Source: an uncultured Prevotella sp. (GTDB lineage Bacteria > Bacteroidota > Bacteroidia > Bacteroidales > Bacteroidaceae). Taken from it: 64,000 bases of DNA. The first letter of the stretch is position 1; each line of letters opens with the position of its first letter. The notes beneath the pieces were generated by a model, which was not told the origin of the DNA, searched no databases, and saw only the letters and a list, made by a program, of their open reading frames with translations. Made by a program: the position numbers and the translations under genes. Location of the stretch: assembly GCA_946402275.1 (NCBI GenBank), contig CAMIVY010000002.1, forward strand, positions 144,724-208,723, in the 5' to 3' direction. Below are positions 6,931 through 32,444 of this stretch, one piece after another.

Positions 6931-7311
6931 TTAATCTAGGAATATGATGTTCAATGTTGCCTCGCTCCTGCCACTGGCTACCAGCTCCACATAGTCGCTG
7001 ACAGCACGGAACGAGCGCAGGAAATGCTGACCTTTCCGGTCGGTATAGCTCACAATGCCTTCCACGTTCACCTGGTAGGAACCACGCAACAGTTCTATTT
7101 GCAGTTCTGCACCCGTGAAGTCAGCACTACTGACCACATGGCGCGTATTCAGGTTGGTCACATGGGCCATGGCCTGTACGCGTTCTATCGTCAATGTGTC
7201 GCCACCATCCAGTCGGATGGAAGCCAGCGTCATATAGTCGTCGTTGTCCTGATGACAGGCAGCGAGTGCCATTGTCATGGTCATCACTAACAAAGTCAGT
7301 ATCTTCTTCAT
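6931..7311 (-). CDS. Small lipoprotein, unknown function
   Basis: Lipobox LAAC + acidic HQDNDD; abuts or overlaps both neighbours; resembles N-terminal domain of the DUF4876-like protein. Confidence 0.7.
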   Translation of the reverse strand: MKKILTLLVMTMTMALAACHQDNDDYMTLASIRLDGGDTLTIERVQAMAHVTNLNTRHVVSSADFTGAELQIELLRGSYQVNVEGIVSYTDRKGQHFLRSFRAVSDYVELVASGRSEATLNIIFLD

Positions 7312-10094
7312 ATAATCACGTTCATTTCAAGTCCGAAATAAGGTTTGGTATGACGGCGGATGGTCTTGCCGTAACTCTCGTAGTCCGGCGAGCAGTCCCA
7401 TATCCTGTTGCAGAACAGGGCCACCTTCAGACGGTCGTTCAGCAGTTTCTTCGTCACCTTCAAGTTCAGGTTCATGGCAAAGGGTACCGTGCTCTTCGTA
7501 TAATTGGTCGAGGAGCGTATCAGCCACTTCAGATAAGGGTCCGAAGCACATGCCGGAGTCCACTCGTGAATGGCACCCTGCGCATCCATATAGGCATCAG
7601 GCTCGCTGCTCAGCGCATCGTGTTGTGAGGAGGTGTACCATTGGCATTGTGCTGATACCGAGAAGCCCAACTTCAACTTAGGCACATCGGTATCGAGCAT
7701 AAAGTTGGTATTGGCCATCTCGTTCACCACACCCTCCTGGTCACGGTATAGTCCTACATACTGCAGTCGGCTACTACCCACCACCACGCTGGGGCGTTCC
7801 ATGATAAGTTGTGAATTACGATAGGTGGTGCGGAACCATGCCCCTGTTATCGTAAGACGGGTGTAAAGATGTGGGATGCGCTTCGATGCAAAGGTCAGCT
7901 CCACACCCTCTTTCTTCGTCTGACTGCCATTCTCGTAGTGCGAATAGGCACTCAACTCTGTCAACAGCTGGTAGGGCATTCCGTCGAGTGAGGGAGGTGC
8001 CGTCAAGGTAGAGGCGTCCACCCCTGATGCATCGTATTTCTTATACTCGTAGGGCTGATAGTTAGTCTGACTGCGGAATCCTGATGTCATGTTCTCATGG
8101 AAGTAAGTCACCGTCAGTCTGTTGCCTCCCACGTTCAGGTCGGCAGTCACCTCCCACTTTTTGTTGCGGGCAGCTCCCAGTTGTGCATTCAGTCCAGGGA
8201 TGATATAGGTGCGCTGGTTGATACGACTGAGTTCTGGATTGATATTGTAATACTTCAGTTGTAGCAGGTCGATATAGGCAGGATCTGGGAACAACTGGTC
8301 GATGGTGGGCATCTTGGTATGCTGTCCGACACCTCCTGAGAGACGTATGAAAGAAGGTTGTGCAAACATGGTGAAACGGGGAAACGTAAAGCCGATGTTG
8401 GCGCGAGGGTCCAGATACCACTTTCCGTTCAGCCGATAGTCGGCAGGCACATTCTTCGACCTAAAGGTACGAAGCGACCCAAGGTCGAGCATCATCTGCA
8501 GGGCACGCACACCAGCCATCAGCTCCAACTGACAGGCTCCGATGGGCATCGTGGCTTTTTCTTCTGCATAGAAAGAGAGTGTATGGTTGGCAGGTTTCTC
8601 CGACAGTCCGCGCATACGTATCTGAGCCGTGGGATAGACAGGGCGCTCAGCGTCGAACACCTGTCCCTCGCCATAGTTCTTGTCCATGTTCCAGTCGGCA
8701 CCCACCAGCAAGGTGTTAGCCACCCTCCTACTGGGAATCTGCAGACGGGCATTCATTTTCAGGAATACATTCAGCGGCTTTCCATCGACATCTTGCGTCG
8801 CCTCATATACATAAGGTAATATCAACAGGTCGTATTCACCCTCTTCCGTATTCATCACAGCTCCAGTCATACTCTGCAGACTCACCGTTCGCGTTCTCGA
8901 AATCCTGTCGTGCTCATAAGAGGCAGCAGCCATCATCTCGGCACTTTTCAGCCAGACGGGCCTTTTCATCTTCAACTCCCATTTGGTGGAGAAAGCCATC
9001 CTGTTATAGTTCGACTTATACCTGTCAACAGCACCCTTGTTCAGGTCAGGGTCCTGCTTCTCACCATCAAACGACCCCGTATAGTCCAGATTAGTGCTCA
9101 TCAGCAAGTCGTAATGGGCACGCTGCCAGGTATGTCCCAGACGAGCAGAGAACGTCACACGCGAATAGTTGTTCAGCGGATTCCTCGGGTCAGCCTTCGA
9201 ATTCAGGTAGTCTGCGCTGATGTTCAGCGTCGTGCGGTTCCTCAGCGTGGTGAGCGTATCAGCGGCATGGTCCCATTCGAAAGCCTTCGCCAGATAAAAG
9301 AGCTTGGAGCCCATGTCCGACTTCAGACGGGCGTGCAGGTCGTGCCCGCCCTTGCGGCGTTCTATCTTTACCAGACCACTGGTCAGGTCGCCATATTCCA
9401 CCGAAGGAATTCCCCTGACAATCTCCACACGTTCTATATCATCCGTTGACAGGGTGCGCATGTCAACACCCGCATTCGTGTTGTCGCGGTCACTGGCAGC
9501 CGTCTCCCATGCACCACTCACATACTGCATGTTGGCATTGGTGGAAATACGAGCCCCATCCACCAGAAAACTCGTACCCAGGGATGAAGTAGCATAGTTG
9601 CTGCCCATAGGACTGGCTTCACGCAGACGGATGTTGTTCGTAGCATTCAGCACAGGGTCTTTGCTCACACCACCAGGCAGCAGTTCCAACAGGTCGGCAA
9701 AACTCGAAGGCTGCAAATGTTCCATCGCATGTTTCCCGATAGTCGAGGCACTTGTCAGTCCATGACTCTCCTGAGCCGTTACCACCACCTCGCCCAGCTT
9801 GCTGATCTCAGCCTTCAACAGGTATCGCCCATCCTTTCTGACAGCCGTCACCAGGGGAGTATATCCCACATAGCTGATTTTCAGCCTTGTCTCATTATTT
9901 TTAGGTATCTGGAAGCGTCCATCTACATTCGTCACGGTCAACGCCCTACCCTTTGCCGCATCCGTTATCGTGGCTCCCACAATGGGTTCCCGCGTTTCCG
10001 CATCCATCACGATACCCTTCACAACCTCCTGAGCATCAGACAATTGGAATGCAAATAAAAGCAATAACAAAAACAATAGTCGTTCTTTATACAT
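7308..10094 (-). CDS. TonB-dependent receptor (non-SusC type)
   Basis: N-terminal carboxypeptidase-regulatory-like domain (VKGIVMDAETREPIVGATI..ISYVGY), EVVVTA box, plug motif DIERVEIVRGIPSVEYGDLTSG, barrel C-terminus YFGLEMNVII. Confidence 0.9.
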   Translation of the reverse strand: MYKERLLFLLLLLFAFQLSDAQEVVKGIVMDAETREPIVGATITDAAKGRALTVTNVDGRFQIPKNNETRLKISYVGYTPLVTAVRKDGRYLLKAEISKLGEVVVTAQESHGLTSASTIGKHAMEHLQPSSFADLLELLPGGVSKDPVLNATNNIRLREASPMGSNYATSSLGTSFLVDGARISTNANMQYVSGAWETAASDRDNTNAGVDMRTLSTDDIERVEIVRGIPSVEYGDLTSGLVKIERRKGGHDLHARLKSDMGSKLFYLAKAFEWDHAADTLTTLRNRTTLNISADYLNSKADPRNPLNNYSRVTFSARLGHTWQRAHYDLLMSTNLDYTGSFDGEKQDPDLNKGAVDRYKSNYNRMAFSTKWELKMKRPVWLKSAEMMAAASYEHDRISRTRTVSLQSMTGAVMNTEEGEYDLLILPYVYEATQDVDGKPLNVFLKMNARLQIPSRRVANTLLVGADWNMDKNYGEGQVFDAERPVYPTAQIRMRGLSEKPANHTLSFYAEEKATMPIGACQLELMAGVRALQMMLDLGSLRTFRSKNVPADYRLNGKWYLDPRANIGFTFPRFTMFAQPSFIRLSGGVGQHTKMPTIDQLFPDPAYIDLLQLKYYNINPELSRINQRTYIIPGLNAQLGAARNKKWEVTADLNVGGNRLTVTYFHENMTSGFRSQTNYQPYEYKKYDASGVDASTLTAPPSLDGMPYQLLTELSAYSHYENGSQTKKEGVELTFASKRIPHLYTRLTITGAWFRTTYRNSQLIMERPSVVVGSSRLQYVGLYRDQEGVVNEMANTNFMLDTDVPKLKLGFSVSAQCQWYTSSQHDALSSEPDAYMDAQGAIHEWTPACASDPYLKWLIRSSTNYTKSTVPFAMNLNLKVTKKLLNDRLKVALFCNRIWDCSPDYESYGKTIRRHTKPYFGLEMNVII
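8451..8489. repeat. 39-bp palindromic REP-like element inside the TBDT coding frame
   Basis: ATTCTTCGACCTAAAGGTACGAAGCGACCCAAGGTCGAG, 38/39 identical to the intergenic copy at 12269-12307; encodes LDLGSLRTFRSKN. Confidence 0.85.
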
Positions 10095-10113
10095 CTGTTA
10101 CAATAATTTAGTA

Positions 10114-10160
10114 CAAAGGTACTACGAACAGTAAACTGTCGCAATACCTAAAACACGTGA
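10114..10160 (-). promoter_or_regulatory. -7 box (TACCTTTG) plus shared upstream motif for the TBDT operon
   Basis: CAAAGGTA 10114-10121 and CAATACCTAAAACACGTGA 10142-10160; 17/19 identical to 1262-1280. Confidence 0.75.
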
Positions 10161-10184
10161 TTTGACATTGAATTACAGATGCAT

Positions 10185-10225
10185 AAAAAAACTTTCGCAA
10201 GCATCCGCTTACAAAAGTTTCTTTT
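10185..10225. terminator. Probable intrinsic terminator after the pullulanase operon
   Basis: AAACTTTCGCAAGC-ATCC-GCTTACAAAAGTTT imperfect hairpin with an A run on the left and a T-rich tract on the right. Confidence 0.55.
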
Positions 10226-10259
10226 CATTTTTCTTTGGTCGAGCGTGCCCGGCCTACGG

Positions 10260-12245
10260 TTACTCGTACATAATCAGGGCAGACTGGGGATGGACTGTGA
10301 CCTGAGCGGCATAGATCTTGTTGGTGGACTGCTCGTTGATGTGTCCGTCCTCGCAGACGATGGTGTAGGTGGCCTTGGGGACGGCTACCTGCTGGGCCTG
10401 GCGCGAGGCGTTGAGGATGACGATGATGTTACGCCAGTCGTCACGTCCTGCATAGTCCTTCAGGCGGAAGGCTACGACACTGGGGGGTGTCTGCAGGAAC
10501 TCGAGGTGCTTGCGCACGAGGTGGGCATCGCCCAAGCGGAAGGCGGGATGGTGCTTGCGCAAGGCGATGAGGTCCTGATAGTATTTGAACACCTGGGGGT
10601 AACGCTGCAGGTTGGACCAATCGAGGTGGTTGATGCTGTCGGGCGACTCGAAGGAGTTGTGGACACCTTTCTTGTCGCGCAGCAGCTCTTCGCCACTGAG
10701 CATGAAAGGTACGCCCTGCGAGGTGAACACGGCAGTCTGCGCCAGCAGGTCAAGACGAACCAACTCGTTCATTTGACTATTGGACAATTGACCATTGGAC
10801 GGTTTCAAAGTGGGGATGCTGGCCTTGAGACGATCTACCAGACACATATCGTCGTGACAGGAGACATAGGACATCATCTGGGTGGGTTCTAATGCCCAGG
10901 GGACTTTCGAGTAGTTGACCTTGGACATATCGACCTGCGGATGGAGGATGGCACCGGCAATGCCGAACTTGAGGCTTTCCTCGCAGTCGGGAGCACCACC
11001 CAGCCAACCGGGCTTGGTATCGTCAGAGAAAGGTCCACGGAGGGCATCGCGAATCTCGTCGGAGAAGGCGGCAATGCCCGGCATCTGCGGGATGTTAGCC
11101 TTCATACCGAGCTTTTCGACAGGCAGGGCACAGGGACCAGCACTCCACCCCTCTCCATAGATGAAGATGGAGGGGTTGATGGCATCGACCATCTGACGAA
11201 TCTGGTTCATGGTCTCGATGTCGTGACAGCCCATGAGGTCGAAACGGAAGCCGTCGATGTGGTATTCCTCTATCCAGTATTTCACGGACTCCATCATGAA
11301 GCGACGCATCATGGGTTGCTCCGAAGCGGTCTCATTGCCACAACCCGAACCGTTGGAATATGAAAATTCATCGTGTGCATCATTTCTCATTTCTCCTTTC
11401 TCATTTCTCATTTTTCTATAGAAATAGTCGGGATAGGTACGCTGGAAATTGGAGTGGTCGATGTCGTAGGTATGGTTATACACCACATCGAGGATGACGG
11501 CAATGCCTGCCTGATGGAGGGCTTGCACCATCTGCTTGAACTCAAGGATGCGGGCTACGGGGTTGTAGGGGTCGGTGGAATAGCCGCCCTCAGGAACGTT
11601 GTAGTTGACGGGGTCGTAGCCCCAGTTGTACTTATTATCGCTGAGTCGCGTCTCATCGACGGAGCCGTAGTCGTAGCTGGGCAGGATATGCACGGCATTG
11701 ACACCCAATGCCTTCAGGTGGCTGATAGCCCATGGCTCGGTGAGAGCCAGGAACTTGCCCGGATACTTGGCATCAGAACGGGCGATGGAGAAGTCGCGAT
11801 GGTGGAGCTCATAGACGATGAGGTCGGCAGGCGACTTGACAACAGGACCACGGTCGGCATCCCATGCATCGGGAGAGGTCTGTTCGGCATGGATGATGGC
11901 TCCACGATGACCATTGACTCCCACGGCTTTGGCAAAGACGCCAGGGCACTCGCCACGCCCCATGTCGAAGGTATAGAAGCGACCCATGAGGTCGCCCTTG
12001 ACGGTGGCTGTCCACAGTCCACCGGCATAGGTCATCTTGACGGTCTTCAAGGCCTTGCCTCCTATGCCGTCCTTATAGATTCTGACCACTACCTTCTTGG
12101 CGGTGGCAGGGGCAAAGAGACGGAAGGTGGTAGCCTCTGGGCTGTAGGTCATCTCGTTGAACGAAAAGTCCTGGGCAATGCATAATTCATAATTCATAAT
12201 GCATAATGTTAGCAGGACCATTCTCTTTATATATTTCTGTATCAT
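10260..12245 (-). CDS. pulA: Type I pullulanase (GH13)
   Basis: YNWGYDP signature, DVVYNH, DGFRFDLMG, YGEGW, YVSCHD catalytic regions; signal peptide. Confidence 0.93.
   Translation of the reverse strand: MIQKYIKRMVLLTLCIMNYELCIAQDFSFNEMTYSPEATTFRLFAPATAKKVVVRIYKDGIGGKALKTVKMTYAGGLWTATVKGDLMGRFYTFDMGRGECPGVFAKAVGVNGHRGAIIHAEQTSPDAWDADRGPVVKSPADLIVYELHHRDFSIARSDAKYPGKFLALTEPWAISHLKALGVNAVHILPSYDYGSVDETRLSDNKYNWGYDPVNYNVPEGGYSTDPYNPVARILEFKQMVQALHQAGIAVILDVVYNHTYDIDHSNFQRTYPDYFYRKMRNEKGEMRNDAHDEFSYSNGSGCGNETASEQPMMRRFMMESVKYWIEEYHIDGFRFDLMGCHDIETMNQIRQMVDAINPSIFIYGEGWSAGPCALPVEKLGMKANIPQMPGIAAFSDEIRDALRGPFSDDTKPGWLGGAPDCEESLKFGIAGAILHPQVDMSKVNYSKVPWALEPTQMMSYVSCHDDMCLVDRLKASIPTLKPSNGQLSNSQMNELVRLDLLAQTAVFTSQGVPFMLSGEELLRDKKGVHNSFESPDSINHLDWSNLQRYPQVFKYYQDLIALRKHHPAFRLGDAHLVRKHLEFLQTPPSVVAFRLKDYAGRDDWRNIIVILNASRQAQQVAVPKATYTIVCEDGHINEQSTNKIYAAQVTVHPQSALIMYE
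10770..10800. repeat. Degenerate 7/8-bp tandem repeat in pullulanase
   Basis: atttgac tattggac aattgac cattggac; encodes SNGQLSNSQM. Confidence 0.6.
11381..11415. repeat. CATTTCT heptamer tandem repeat (5 units) in pullulanase
   Basis: catttct catttct cctttct catttct cattttt; encodes KMRNEKGEMRN. Confidence 0.85.
12181..12208. repeat. CATAAT(T/G) heptamer x4 in pullulanase signal peptide
   Basis: cataatt cataatt cataatg cataatg; encodes LCIMNYELC. Confidence 0.85.
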
Positions 12246-12268
12246 ATTTCATTCGTTTTTTATTATGA

Positions 12269-12307
12269 ATTCTTCGACCTAAAGGTACGAAGCGACCAAA
12301 GGTCGAG
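12269..12307. repeat. 39-bp palindromic REP-like element, intergenic copy
   Basis: ATTCTTCGACCTAAAGGTACGAAGCGACCAAAGGTCGAG between the GH97 stop and the pulA start; outer stem TCGACCT/AGGTCGA. Confidence 0.85.
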
Positions 12308-12316
12308 TGATACGAA

Positions 12317-17016
<4,700 letters not shown>

Positions 17017-30246: not shown

Positions 30247-32286
30247 ATGAAGAAAGTGTTATCAGCAACCATCTTATTCCTCTTTGCGCTGTCAGCAATG
30301 GCGCAGATGATGGATCCAGTACACTTCACGACTGAACTGAAAAAATTAAAGGGGAACGAGGCAGAGCTCGTTTTCTCGGCAACGATTGACCCAGGATGGC
30401 ATGTATATTCCACGAATCTGGGTAGCAACGGACCGATCTCCGCTTCGTTTAACACGGTAAAGATGGATGGTGCTGAACTGGTGGGCAAGTTGCAGGCACG
30501 GGGTCACGAAATCAAGAATTTCGACAAGCTCTTCGACATGGAGCTGCGCTATTTTGAGAAGGCGGTGACATTCGTACAGAAAATCCGTTTCACCAAGCCA
30601 CACTACTCGATTGACTGCTACGTGGAATATGGAGCCTGCAATGACGAGGCTTGTCTGCCCCCCTCTGAAGCTACGCTGAAAACGAGCGGAGAGAGCCCTG
30701 TGGCAAGCACTGAGAATACCCAAGAAATTAAAGAGGAAAAGGTGGCTGAAAAGACGGATGCTGACACGATAACGGCGCAACATGATTCTTCATCCGTGGC
30801 AGTAGCAGCAGAGGCAGAGAATGACCTTTGGCAACCCGTCATTGAGGAACTGAAGACAATGGGTGGTAGCGACAACATAGCAGACCATTCCTTGCTCTAT
30901 ATCCTGCTGATGGGATTCATTGGCGGTCTGCTGGCTGTCTGTATGCCTTGCATCTGGCCTATCATCCCCATGACGGTAAGCTTCTTCCTGAAACGTGCCA
31001 TGACGGACAAGCGGAAAGGCATTAAGGATGCAATCATCTATGGACTGAGCATCATCGTGATATATCTGGGCTTGGGATTGCTTGTGACGGCAATCTTCGG
31101 TAGCGACACGCTGAACGCCATGTCAACCAATGCCATATTCAATATCTTCCTATTCGTGCTGTTGGTGGTCTTCGCCCTGTCATTCTTTGGTTGGTTCGAA
31201 ATCAAGTTGCCCGATAGCTGGGCGAATGCTGTGGATACCAAGGCTTCCACGACTAGTGGACTGCTTTCCATCTTCCTGATGGCCTTCACCCTTGTGCTCG
31301 TTTCGTTCTCCTGTACAGCTCCTATCATCGGTCTGCTTTTGGTAGAGACGACAACCAGTGGGAACTGGCTGGCACCAGCCTTGGGAATGTTCGGTTTTGC
31401 ATTGGCGTTAGCCCTACCCTTCACACTCTTTGCACTCTTCCCTGCATGGCTGAAACAGGCTCCTAAGTCAGGATCGTGGATGAACACCCTGAAAGTCGTG
31501 CTCGGATTTATTGAGTTGGCTTTCGCCTTGAAATTCTTCTCCGTAGCCGACCTTGCCTATGGCTGGCATCTGTTGGACCGTGAGGTGTTCCTGTCGTTAT
31601 GGATTGTCATCTTTGCCTTGTTGGGAGCCTACCTCTGCGGATGGCTGAAATTCCAGAGTGATGTCCTACTCACCATGAACCAAGAACCATTAACCGTGAA
31701 CCACAAACCCATGCCTGTGGCCTGTATCATGGGCGGACTGTTATCACTGGCCTTCGCCATTTACATGGTTCCTGGACTCTGGGGAGCTCCCTGTAAGGCT
31801 GTAAGTGCTTTCGCACCACCTATGAACACACAAGATTTCAACCTGAACACAAAAGTGGTGGAAGCCAAATTCACAGACTACGATGAAGGAATGGCTGCTG
31901 CCAAAGCACAAGGAAAGCCCGTGCTCATTGACTTTACAGGATTCGGATGTGTCAACTGCCGTAAAATGGAGGCGGCGGTATGGACAGACCCAGAGGTGGC
32001 TGATATGTTGACGGACGACTTTGTGCTTATCTCACTCTATGTGGATGACAAGACACCACTCAAGGAACCCATAGAAGTGACTGACGCCCACGGCAATACC
32101 AAGACGCTGCGTACCGTAGGGGCAAAATGGAGCTGGCTACAGAGTTCCAAATTCGGAGCCAATGCCCAACCGTTTTATGTCGTGCTCGACAACAACGGGA
32201 AACCACTAACTAATAGCCGTGCCTACGATGAGGACATTGCGGAATACATCAAATTCCTGAAAAAAGGTCTTGAGAAATATAAATAA
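30247..32286 (+). CDS. dsbD: DsbD-family protein-disulfide reductase
   Basis: N-domain GWHVYS and ACNDEACLPP, TM cysteines MPCIWP and FSCTAP, thioredoxin FTGFGCVNCRKME. Confidence 0.88.
   Translation: MKKVLSATILFLFALSAMAQMMDPVHFTTELKKLKGNEAELVFSATIDPGWHVYSTNLGSNGPISASFNTVKMDGAELVGKLQARGHEIKNFDKLFDMELRYFEKAVTFVQKIRFTKPHYSIDCYVEYGACNDEACLPPSEATLKTSGESPVASTENTQEIKEEKVAEKTDADTITAQHDSSSVAVAAEAENDLWQPVIEELKTMGGSDNIADHSLLYILLMGFIGGLLAVCMPCIWPIIPMTVSFFLKRAMTDKRKGIKDAIIYGLSIIVIYLGLGLLVTAIFGSDTLNAMSTNAIFNIFLFVLLVVFALSFFGWFEIKLPDSWANAVDTKASTTSGLLSIFLMAFTLVLVSFSCTAPIIGLLLVETTTSGNWLAPALGMFGFALALALPFTLFALFPAWLKQAPKSGSWMNTLKVVLGFIELAFALKFFSVADLAYGWHLLDREVFLSLWIVIFALLGAYLCGWLKFQSDVLLTMNQEPLTVNHKPMPVACIMGGLLSLAFAIYMVPGLWGAPCKAVSAFAPPMNTQDFNLNTKVVEAKFTDYDEGMAAAKAQGKPVLIDFTGFGCVNCRKMEAAVWTDPEVADMLTDDFVLISLYVDDKTPLKEPIEVTDAHGNTKTLRTVGAKWSWLQSSKFGANAQPFYVVLDNNGKPLTNSRAYDEDIAEYIKFLKKGLEKYK
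31671..31712. repeat. AACCnnn heptamer x6 in DsbD loop
   Basis: caccatg aaccaag aaccatt aaccgtg aaccaca aacccat; encodes TMNQEPLTVNHKP. Confidence 0.75.
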
Positions 32287-32444
32287 CCCTCACGAGGGTG
32301 AGAGTTCTCTACACTGTAACGATAGTGGAAGTGGAGGGAATCGTAATCGACCTAAGTCGCTTTTACAAAGCGGAGCGACTAAAAGAACCCTCACGAGGGT
32401 GAGAGTTCTCTTCACTGTAACGATAGTGGAAGTGGAGGGAATCG
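32285..32444. repeat. 59-bp direct repeat of tmRNA 3' end and terminator, separated by a 42-bp hairpin
   Basis: 32285-32343 vs 32386-32444, one mismatch; period 101 bp. Confidence 0.92.
32381..32411 (-). terminator. tmRNA intrinsic terminator
   Basis: Minus strand AGAACTCTCAC-CCTC-GTGAGGGTTCT followed by TTT. Confidence 0.75.

Follow-up and report, generated by a model that had tools for sequence, protein, structure and literature searches.

A probable two-hairpin insertion element lying between genes and in frame within a TonB-dependent receptor gene of a rumen Prevotella

Rickettsia palindromic elements (RPEs) lie in frame within genes as well as between them, and the classical RPE-1 measures about 100-150 nt. 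The small dispersed repeats SDR1-8 of cyanobacteria are reportedly mobile, measure about 21-27 nt, have no enzyme known to move them and occur nested within each other as well as within heptamer (STRR) arrays. Palindrome-associated transposable elements (PATEs) are miniatures derived from IS200/IS605, at least 100 nt long, that share their end hairpins with a TnpA-bearing parent and move by peel-and-paste, the chemistry of IS200/IS605 being one of imperfect hairpins, no target duplication and insertion beside a fixed base. The subject here is a 36-nt element with two hairpins, found in two closely similar copies in a 64,000-nt stretch (the window) of contig CAMIVY010000002.1 from an uncultured rumen Prevotella sp., one copy lying in frame within the gene of a TonB-dependent receptor and the other between a GH97 gene and a pullulanase-type gene.

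Repetitive extragenic palindromic (REP) sequences and REP doublets forming hairpins (REPINs) are imperfect hairpins of 20-40 nt present in tens to hundreds of copies (PMC3116915, PMC3733652), the tags of REPs being defined as GTAG or CGTC (PMC3733652). Intragenic in-frame REP copies have been tabulated for several species in several phyla, CGTC-type REPs are without a known transposase, and RPE-4 and RPE-6 have been treated as CGTC-type REPs (PMC3733652). Cyanobacterial SDRs are cited in passages of PMC3116915 and PMC5861425. Literature searches returned no description of such elements in Prevotella or Bacteroidota.

Filled and empty sites at the two window loci

Both window repeats are very probably copies of a non-autonomous element of 33-39 nt, built of two hairpins, that inserts at the level of DNA. 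A preliminary description of the window had reported a 39-nt string at 8451-8489 and again at 12269-12307, and both are indeed present in the same orientation on the + strand, identical at 38 of 39 positions and with no match expected by chance (0 in 100 shuffles). The sole mismatch, C at 8480 against A at 12298, falls in the loop of hairpin B. The first copy is, as had been claimed, read in frame in a 928-aa open reading frame (ORF) whose relatives carry CarbopepD_reg_2, Plug and TonB-barrel domains, translation from the - strand yielding 12 residues (537-548 of P0001). The repeat therefore stands as first reported and its size does not, the inserted unit being 36 nt as the ATT ahead of the receptor copy is a conserved host Asn codon and belongs to the flank rather than to the element (Table 1).

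Exactly 12 residues are missing at the insert point from eight receptor orthologues within the genus, and 15/15 aligned metagenomic homologues (59-82% identity) likewise lack them. In orthologue DNA about 80% identical to the window gene exactly 36 nt are absent, with an ambiguity of 1 nt and no target duplication. Within the 90%-identity cluster of the receptor itself the insert is present in 10 of 12 aligned members (nine of 928 aa and one 553-aa fragment), and P0129 and P0132, both of 916 aa and 98.6-98.7% identical to the window protein, lack exactly these 12 residues. Same-species alleles of the receptor survive without the insert, so that the alignment of orthologues proposed in the preliminary description did find empty sites.

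The intergenic copy lies 9 nt past the GH97 stop and 23 nt ahead of the pullulanase start, occupying most of the 71-nt spacer between the two genes. This copy is missing in G386, a related species and the nearest genome identified, where the flanks are 89-91% identical and the spacer is correspondingly shorter and heptamer-like. Two metagenomic contigs of the same species (L171 and L180), 97.4% identical to the window over 12.8 kb, keep both copies, so that neither copy is an artefact of assembly; the metagenome scan for same-species loci returned these filled sites only and no empty one.

The peptide had been thought to sit in a protein loop. In an AlphaFold2 (AF2) model of the receptor, made with 68 homologues (predicted local distance difference test 76, predicted template modelling score 0.73), the sole low-confidence segment of the barrel is 538-554, comprising the insert and its neighbours and flanked by strands 521-536 and 560-570. 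Over the stretch that runs from residue 503 to the C-terminus, short connections (2-8 residues) and long ones (17-47 residues) follow each other in strict turn along the strands. The connection 536-560 is one of the long series and measures 11 residues once the insert is removed. In outer-membrane barrels the long-loop series is, as a general rule, extracellular. By this alternation the 12-residue insert would lie in an extracellular loop between two barrel strands, its residues being predicted to be disordered, and the peptide is probably a tolerated passenger. A sequence search of the PDB with the receptor gave a match to the N-terminal domain only.

Structure, targets and distribution of the family

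The element consists of two adjacent hairpins, A and B, followed by a tail of 2-5 nt (GAG, GAGCG or ATTA). The stem of hairpin A has 5 bp (CTTYG/CRAAG) and then 3 bp, capped by a loop of TAAA or TGAA; in most copies a purine bulges out between the two parts, and in some subfamilies the stem is perfect. Hairpin B has a CG-closed stem of 4-6 bp that comes in several sequence types. In the window copies hairpin A has 5+3 bp, a purine bulge and a loop of 4 nt, and hairpin B has 5 bp and a 3-nt loop. In a structure alignment of 40 copies (A2), 96.8% of cells are paired on the two-hairpin structure against 25-39% in slid controls, with both-sided changes at 4 of 13 pairs (e.g. U-A 28, C-G 10), the fold being maintained through compensatory changes. 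Energy minimisation of both window copies, for either strand, also gives the two hairpins (z about -3 to -4); of the two foldings first drawn for the repeat, the pair of hairpins is upheld, with hairpin A larger than drawn, and the single long stem is not the minimum-energy fold. No autonomous parent, bounded by hairpin A on one side and by hairpin B on the other, was found among the partial profile-search matches in the genome. In a shortened derivative at C4:56342-56363 of the assembly, hairpin A supplies its 5' half and hairpin B its 3' half, the fusion looking like the outcome of recombination between the two similar stems.

Searches of the whole assembly (G000; 3.38 Mb, 73 contigs) by short-word BLAST and an nhmmer profile gave 69 family matches at E<0.1, about 50 of them full length, and a degenerate 24-nt pattern gave 36 matches against 0 for its reversed control. 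The genome-wide count of copies, on which the preliminary description had staked its reading, is thus about 70 and far above two. With a covariance model (R1) the family was detected in 55 of 150 sampled Prevotella genomes/species, copy counts being very unequal with at most 40 candidates scored per genome, and its distribution across the genus is patchy. The pattern is present in the cultured isolates Prevotella sp. tc2-28 and Prevotellaceae bacterium HUN156 and MN60. When 52 near-full-length copies in the assembly were classified by position with a crude longest-ORF caller, 30 lay between co-directional genes, seven between convergent genes, two between divergent genes, three at contig ends and 10 deep inside ORFs; those between co-directional genes showed no bias of orientation relative to transcription (16 in the same sense, 14 opposite).

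A T stands at -1 before CTTYG in 48/49 copies and at -2 in 37/49, and the T at -1 belongs to the target in every filled/empty pair with readable DNA. Copies were excised in silico by cutting at ^CTTYG and after GAG, GAGCG or ATTA, and an in-phase heptamer array was scored where at least 5/7 positions matched across the rejoined junction. Such an array was restored for 27 of 48 copies at the true boundaries. Moving the boundaries by 1 nt gave 0-8 of 48, and random intergenic places gave 6%. Period-7 arrays number 630 in the genome at a Tandem Repeats Finder score of at least 30, against 100 of period 6, and an array lies within 30 nt of 32 of the 69 copies where 1.5 would be expected at random and 6.9 at random intergenic positions. 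Neither window copy is inside a heptamer array. A filled/empty pair is also found within the assembly, a variant copy occupying the end-repeat hairpin of one duplicated RAYT-like gene (see below) with the other duplicate empty. From the junctions and the arrays together, insertion is therefore precise, occurs after T without duplication and prefers heptamer arrays. The period-7 arrays are themselves widespread, with units of the RTGAAnA kind (window examples at 12181-12208 and 14524-14570), and 162 of them are situated over 150 nt deep in ORFs as called by the same crude procedure.

Counting the receptor, at least 11 copies lie in frame inside real genes of the assembly. Pfam places the insert within a domain envelope or in a linker in the 10 further host genes, which encode an OMP_b-brl_3 barrel, MiaA, CobQ, CbiE/T, CbiB (CobD_Cbib), a metallophosphoesterase, an MFS transporter, a PAD_porph deiminase, an RsmB/F-like methyltransferase and an ECF sigma factor. 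Translated copies occur in both orientations and several frames, and no gene-breaking insertion was seen. In another species (G123) two of about 21 copies are in frame, in a Peptidase_M19 domain and an AMP-binding enzyme. Presence or absence is polymorphic within 90%-identity clusters at three sites, namely the receptor, the OMP_b-brl_3 gene and CbiE/T. Filled and empty alleles of the OMP_b-brl_3 gene are 12 residues apart, and the filled state occurs in both of two clades with 100/100 support, implying repeated gain or loss, or else recombination. CbiE/T has an empty allele of 403 aa, a single one of 416 aa and a double one of 429 aa in which a second, hairpin-type insert of 13 residues is nested in the first; the branching of the trees of receptor and CbiE/T alleles was not resolved. 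The proposal of a tiny non-autonomous mobile element that donates a peptide to protein loops is borne out by the empty sites and by these hosts in two species, and the earlier reading is supported in essentials.

Some other features of the host genes were seen in passing. The nested insert of CbiE/T (P0167, P0174, P0179) is of a GC-rich hairpin type found also beside an element copy at C2:258129, and OMP_b-brl_3 alleles P0136 and P0140-P0142 show an independent presence/absence polymorphism of 11 residues (IPEQSSPTRSL) near the N-terminus. Two paralogous proteins of about 570-600 aa start with a translated copy of hairpin B, at C18:24815-24853 and C5:113724-113762, which is part of the n-region of the signal peptide (MKKIMRSTFGRLF...).

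Table 1. Positions, in window coordinates, of the element copies, the genes around them and a third family member
Feature	Position	Strand	Remarks
Element copy in receptor gene, 36 nt	8454..8489	+	boundary ambiguous by 1 nt
Hairpin A of receptor copy	8454-8474		
Hairpin B of receptor copy	8475-8487		
Tail of receptor copy	8488-8489		AG
Intergenic element copy, 36 nt	12272..12307	+	
Hairpin A of intergenic copy	12272-12292		
Hairpin B of intergenic copy	12293-12305		
TonB-dependent receptor gene (P0001)	7308..10094	-	928 aa with insert, 916 aa without
Pullulanase-type GH13 gene	10260..12245	-	downstream of intergenic copy
GH97 gene	12317..14590	-	upstream of intergenic copy
Third, diverged family member	32341..32393	-	covariance-model E 1e-5

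The third family member lies between two copies of the duplicated 3' end of the transfer-messenger RNA (tmRNA). At 32281-32444 this 3' end and its terminator are duplicated over 63 nt at 97% identity, the 38-nt spacer between them being the diverged hairpin-family member, and the arrangement may represent an att-like scar or else an insertion that came with a duplication. The GH97_N match of the GH97 protein (12320-14590) spans residues 23-345 on a profile of 229 positions, so that this domain has about 90 extra residues, possibly further inserts derived from repeats.

What moves the element

As the results show, the element is copied precisely to new sites, directly after a T, in either orientation and with the target site left unduplicated. 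It often lands inside tandem arrays of heptamers and sometimes inside another hairpin element, and insertions persist and are translated, in loops and linkers, where the frame is kept either by the length of the element alone or together with the surrounding array. Several points weigh against the reading as an insertion element. Transposition itself has never been observed directly and no enzyme linked to the element was found, while the patterns of presence and absence could in part have arisen by recombination between strains or by precise deletion. The empty receptor junction of the same species is known from protein, the junction in DNA coming from orthologues about 80% identical, and the extracellular placement of the peptide follows from the alternation of loop lengths in a predicted model. 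The genome-wide counts of position depend on the crude ORF caller.

For the mover, a structure-specific nuclease of HUH/Y1 type or an analogous one, acting in trans and recognising the folded single strand, is put forward tentatively. A narrower proposal, that the element is of REP/REPIN type and moved specifically by a resident REP-associated tyrosine transposase (RAYT; HUH Y1), is rather unlikely. Four PF01797 genes are resident in the assembly, one IS200-like and three RAYT-like but below the NCBIfam cut-off, and the bulged hairpin, the fixed adjoining base and the lack of target duplication resemble IS200/IS605 chemistry. Of the 55 genomes with the element 42 have PF01797, as do 42 of the 95 that lack it, an association that is suggestive among relatives that are not independent, and an element copy lies within 2 kb of a RAYT-like gene at 3 of 11 loci. 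However, 10 RAYT-like loci in other genomes have only two nearby copies between them, and the one adjacent copy in the assembly is itself an insertion into a RAYT-like end repeat. The preliminary description had looked to a RAYT or IS200-like gene flanked by the motif, but none of the four Y1 genes of the assembly is bracketed by the element, each having its own unrelated end repeats, and the likeness to RAYT/HUH systems is one of analogy only. The GTAG/CGTC tag is absent, inverted doublets are rare, and a genome that is 97% complete with 24 copies (G079) has no PF01797 match. Nor is orientation significantly linked to GC skew (30 vs 17, p=0.13), a comparison confounded by gene strand. No significant element copy was found near the two DUF559 genes of the assembly.

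The Y1 genes are of interest for their own surroundings. The IS200-like gene (C1:128134-131478) lies amid different GC-rich hairpin repeats (stem CACAGGGGC/GCCCCTGTG and others), with which it may form a true REP/transposase pair. Two tandem RAYT-like genes of 289 aa (C19:1-4898) each have hairpin-forming terminal inverted repeats of about 31 nt, and on C52 a perfect inverted repeat of 34 nt encloses the RAYT-like gene.

Spread without a dedicated enzyme is doubtful as well. Under this alternative, strand switching at replication or repair synthesis copies the hairpin module from a template, the heptamer arrays acting as landing sites that are prone to slippage and rich in microhomology. In keeping with it, in-phase interruption of a heptamer array is seen for over half of the copies in a genome with hundreds of such arrays, the nearest relative of the receptor copy is just 3.8 kb away, and there is neither a target duplication nor a partner gene. 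Yet the sharp and uniform termini and the nearly invariant T at -1 look enzyme-defined, as do insertions without array or microhomology such as those in the receptor and CbiE/T, and the same module occurs across many species.

It is very improbable that the repeats are functional RNA elements, such as terminators, stabilisers or regulatory hairpins, selected site by site, with the coding copy forming a structure inside the messenger RNA. The stems are maintained by compensatory changes, and many copies lie in short co-directional spacers or between convergent genes with only two between divergent genes, as with REPs; against this stand the lack of preference for the direction of transcription, the absence of a U-tract and of any covariance-model match at E<=1 in an Rfam 15 scan of 7000-15000, the translation of copies in both orientations and several frames, and the variation of presence at three sites within 90%-identity clusters. 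Chance or ancient similarity, the peptide being an old part of the receptor, has nothing in its favour and is refuted for practical purposes by the absence of chance matches, by the 15 homologues and eight orthologues without the 12 residues and by the empty alleles in the receptor's own cluster.

Implications and comparison with known systems

Taken as an insertion element, the repeat ranks with the smallest pieces of DNA for which recent insertion is well supported, and it shares with CGTC-type REPs and cyanobacterial SDRs the lack of any known mover. Its mechanism is testable, as cultured isolates carry the pattern and public rumen metagenomes hold filled, empty and nested alleles. Through the element, proteins can acquire extra peptides in their loops, as two outer-membrane barrels do here, and one might speculate that such polymorphism of barrels is relevant to recognition by phage or bacteriocins. 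For annotation, in-frame copies mimic lineage-specific inserts, extend the starts of ORFs and can split gene calls, while the sites that vary in presence provide ready strain markers for rumen Prevotella. It is conceivable, though hardly to be presumed, that hairpin modules, together with the heptamer arrays interrupted by them, form a separate mode of DNA movement in Bacteroidota. Such a mode would have its principle in common with cyanobacterial SDR/STRR systems, would be driven by an undescribed enzyme or process of replication, and would routinely remodel outer-membrane surface loops within species.

Like RPEs, the copies are dispersed palindromes to which no transposase is known to be linked. 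Both kinds occur in intergenic positions and also in frame in functional genes, which then encode additional peptides at the surface or in loops. The two differ in phylum, in their unrelated sequences and in length, at 33-39 nt against about 100-150 nt for RPE-1, and the Prevotella family is set apart by its two-hairpin module, its lack of a CGTC tag and its strong association with heptamer arrays; with a rumen Prevotella host, a 36-nt two-hairpin module and no CGTC end, it falls outside the RPE sequence family. The resemblance to REPs and REPINs lies in short imperfect hairpins and many dispersed copies that are mostly extragenic, seldom between divergent genes and patchy among relatives (PMC3116915, PMC3733652). 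Unlike REPs, the element has no GTAG or CGTC tag, its ends in alignment A2 being CTTYG and GAG, GAGCG or ATTA, and no RAYT gene bracketed by the same repeat was found. Unlike REPINs, it combines two different hairpins in tandem, most copies being single and inverted doublets few (e.g. C19:9241/9274).

The element resembles the PATEs of IS200/IS605 in its hairpin ends, in leaving the target unduplicated and in inserting 3' of a short fixed sequence, although no TnpA-bearing parent with the same end hairpins was found. In contrast to classical miniature inverted-repeat transposable elements, no inverted repeat relates one end to the other and the flanks rejoin exactly without duplication. The closest analogues in behaviour are the cyanobacterial SDRs, which reportedly share the in-phase interruption of heptamer arrays and the nesting. 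SDRs come from Nostocaceae, whereas frequent residence in frame and polymorphism within populations are here shown for Prevotella.

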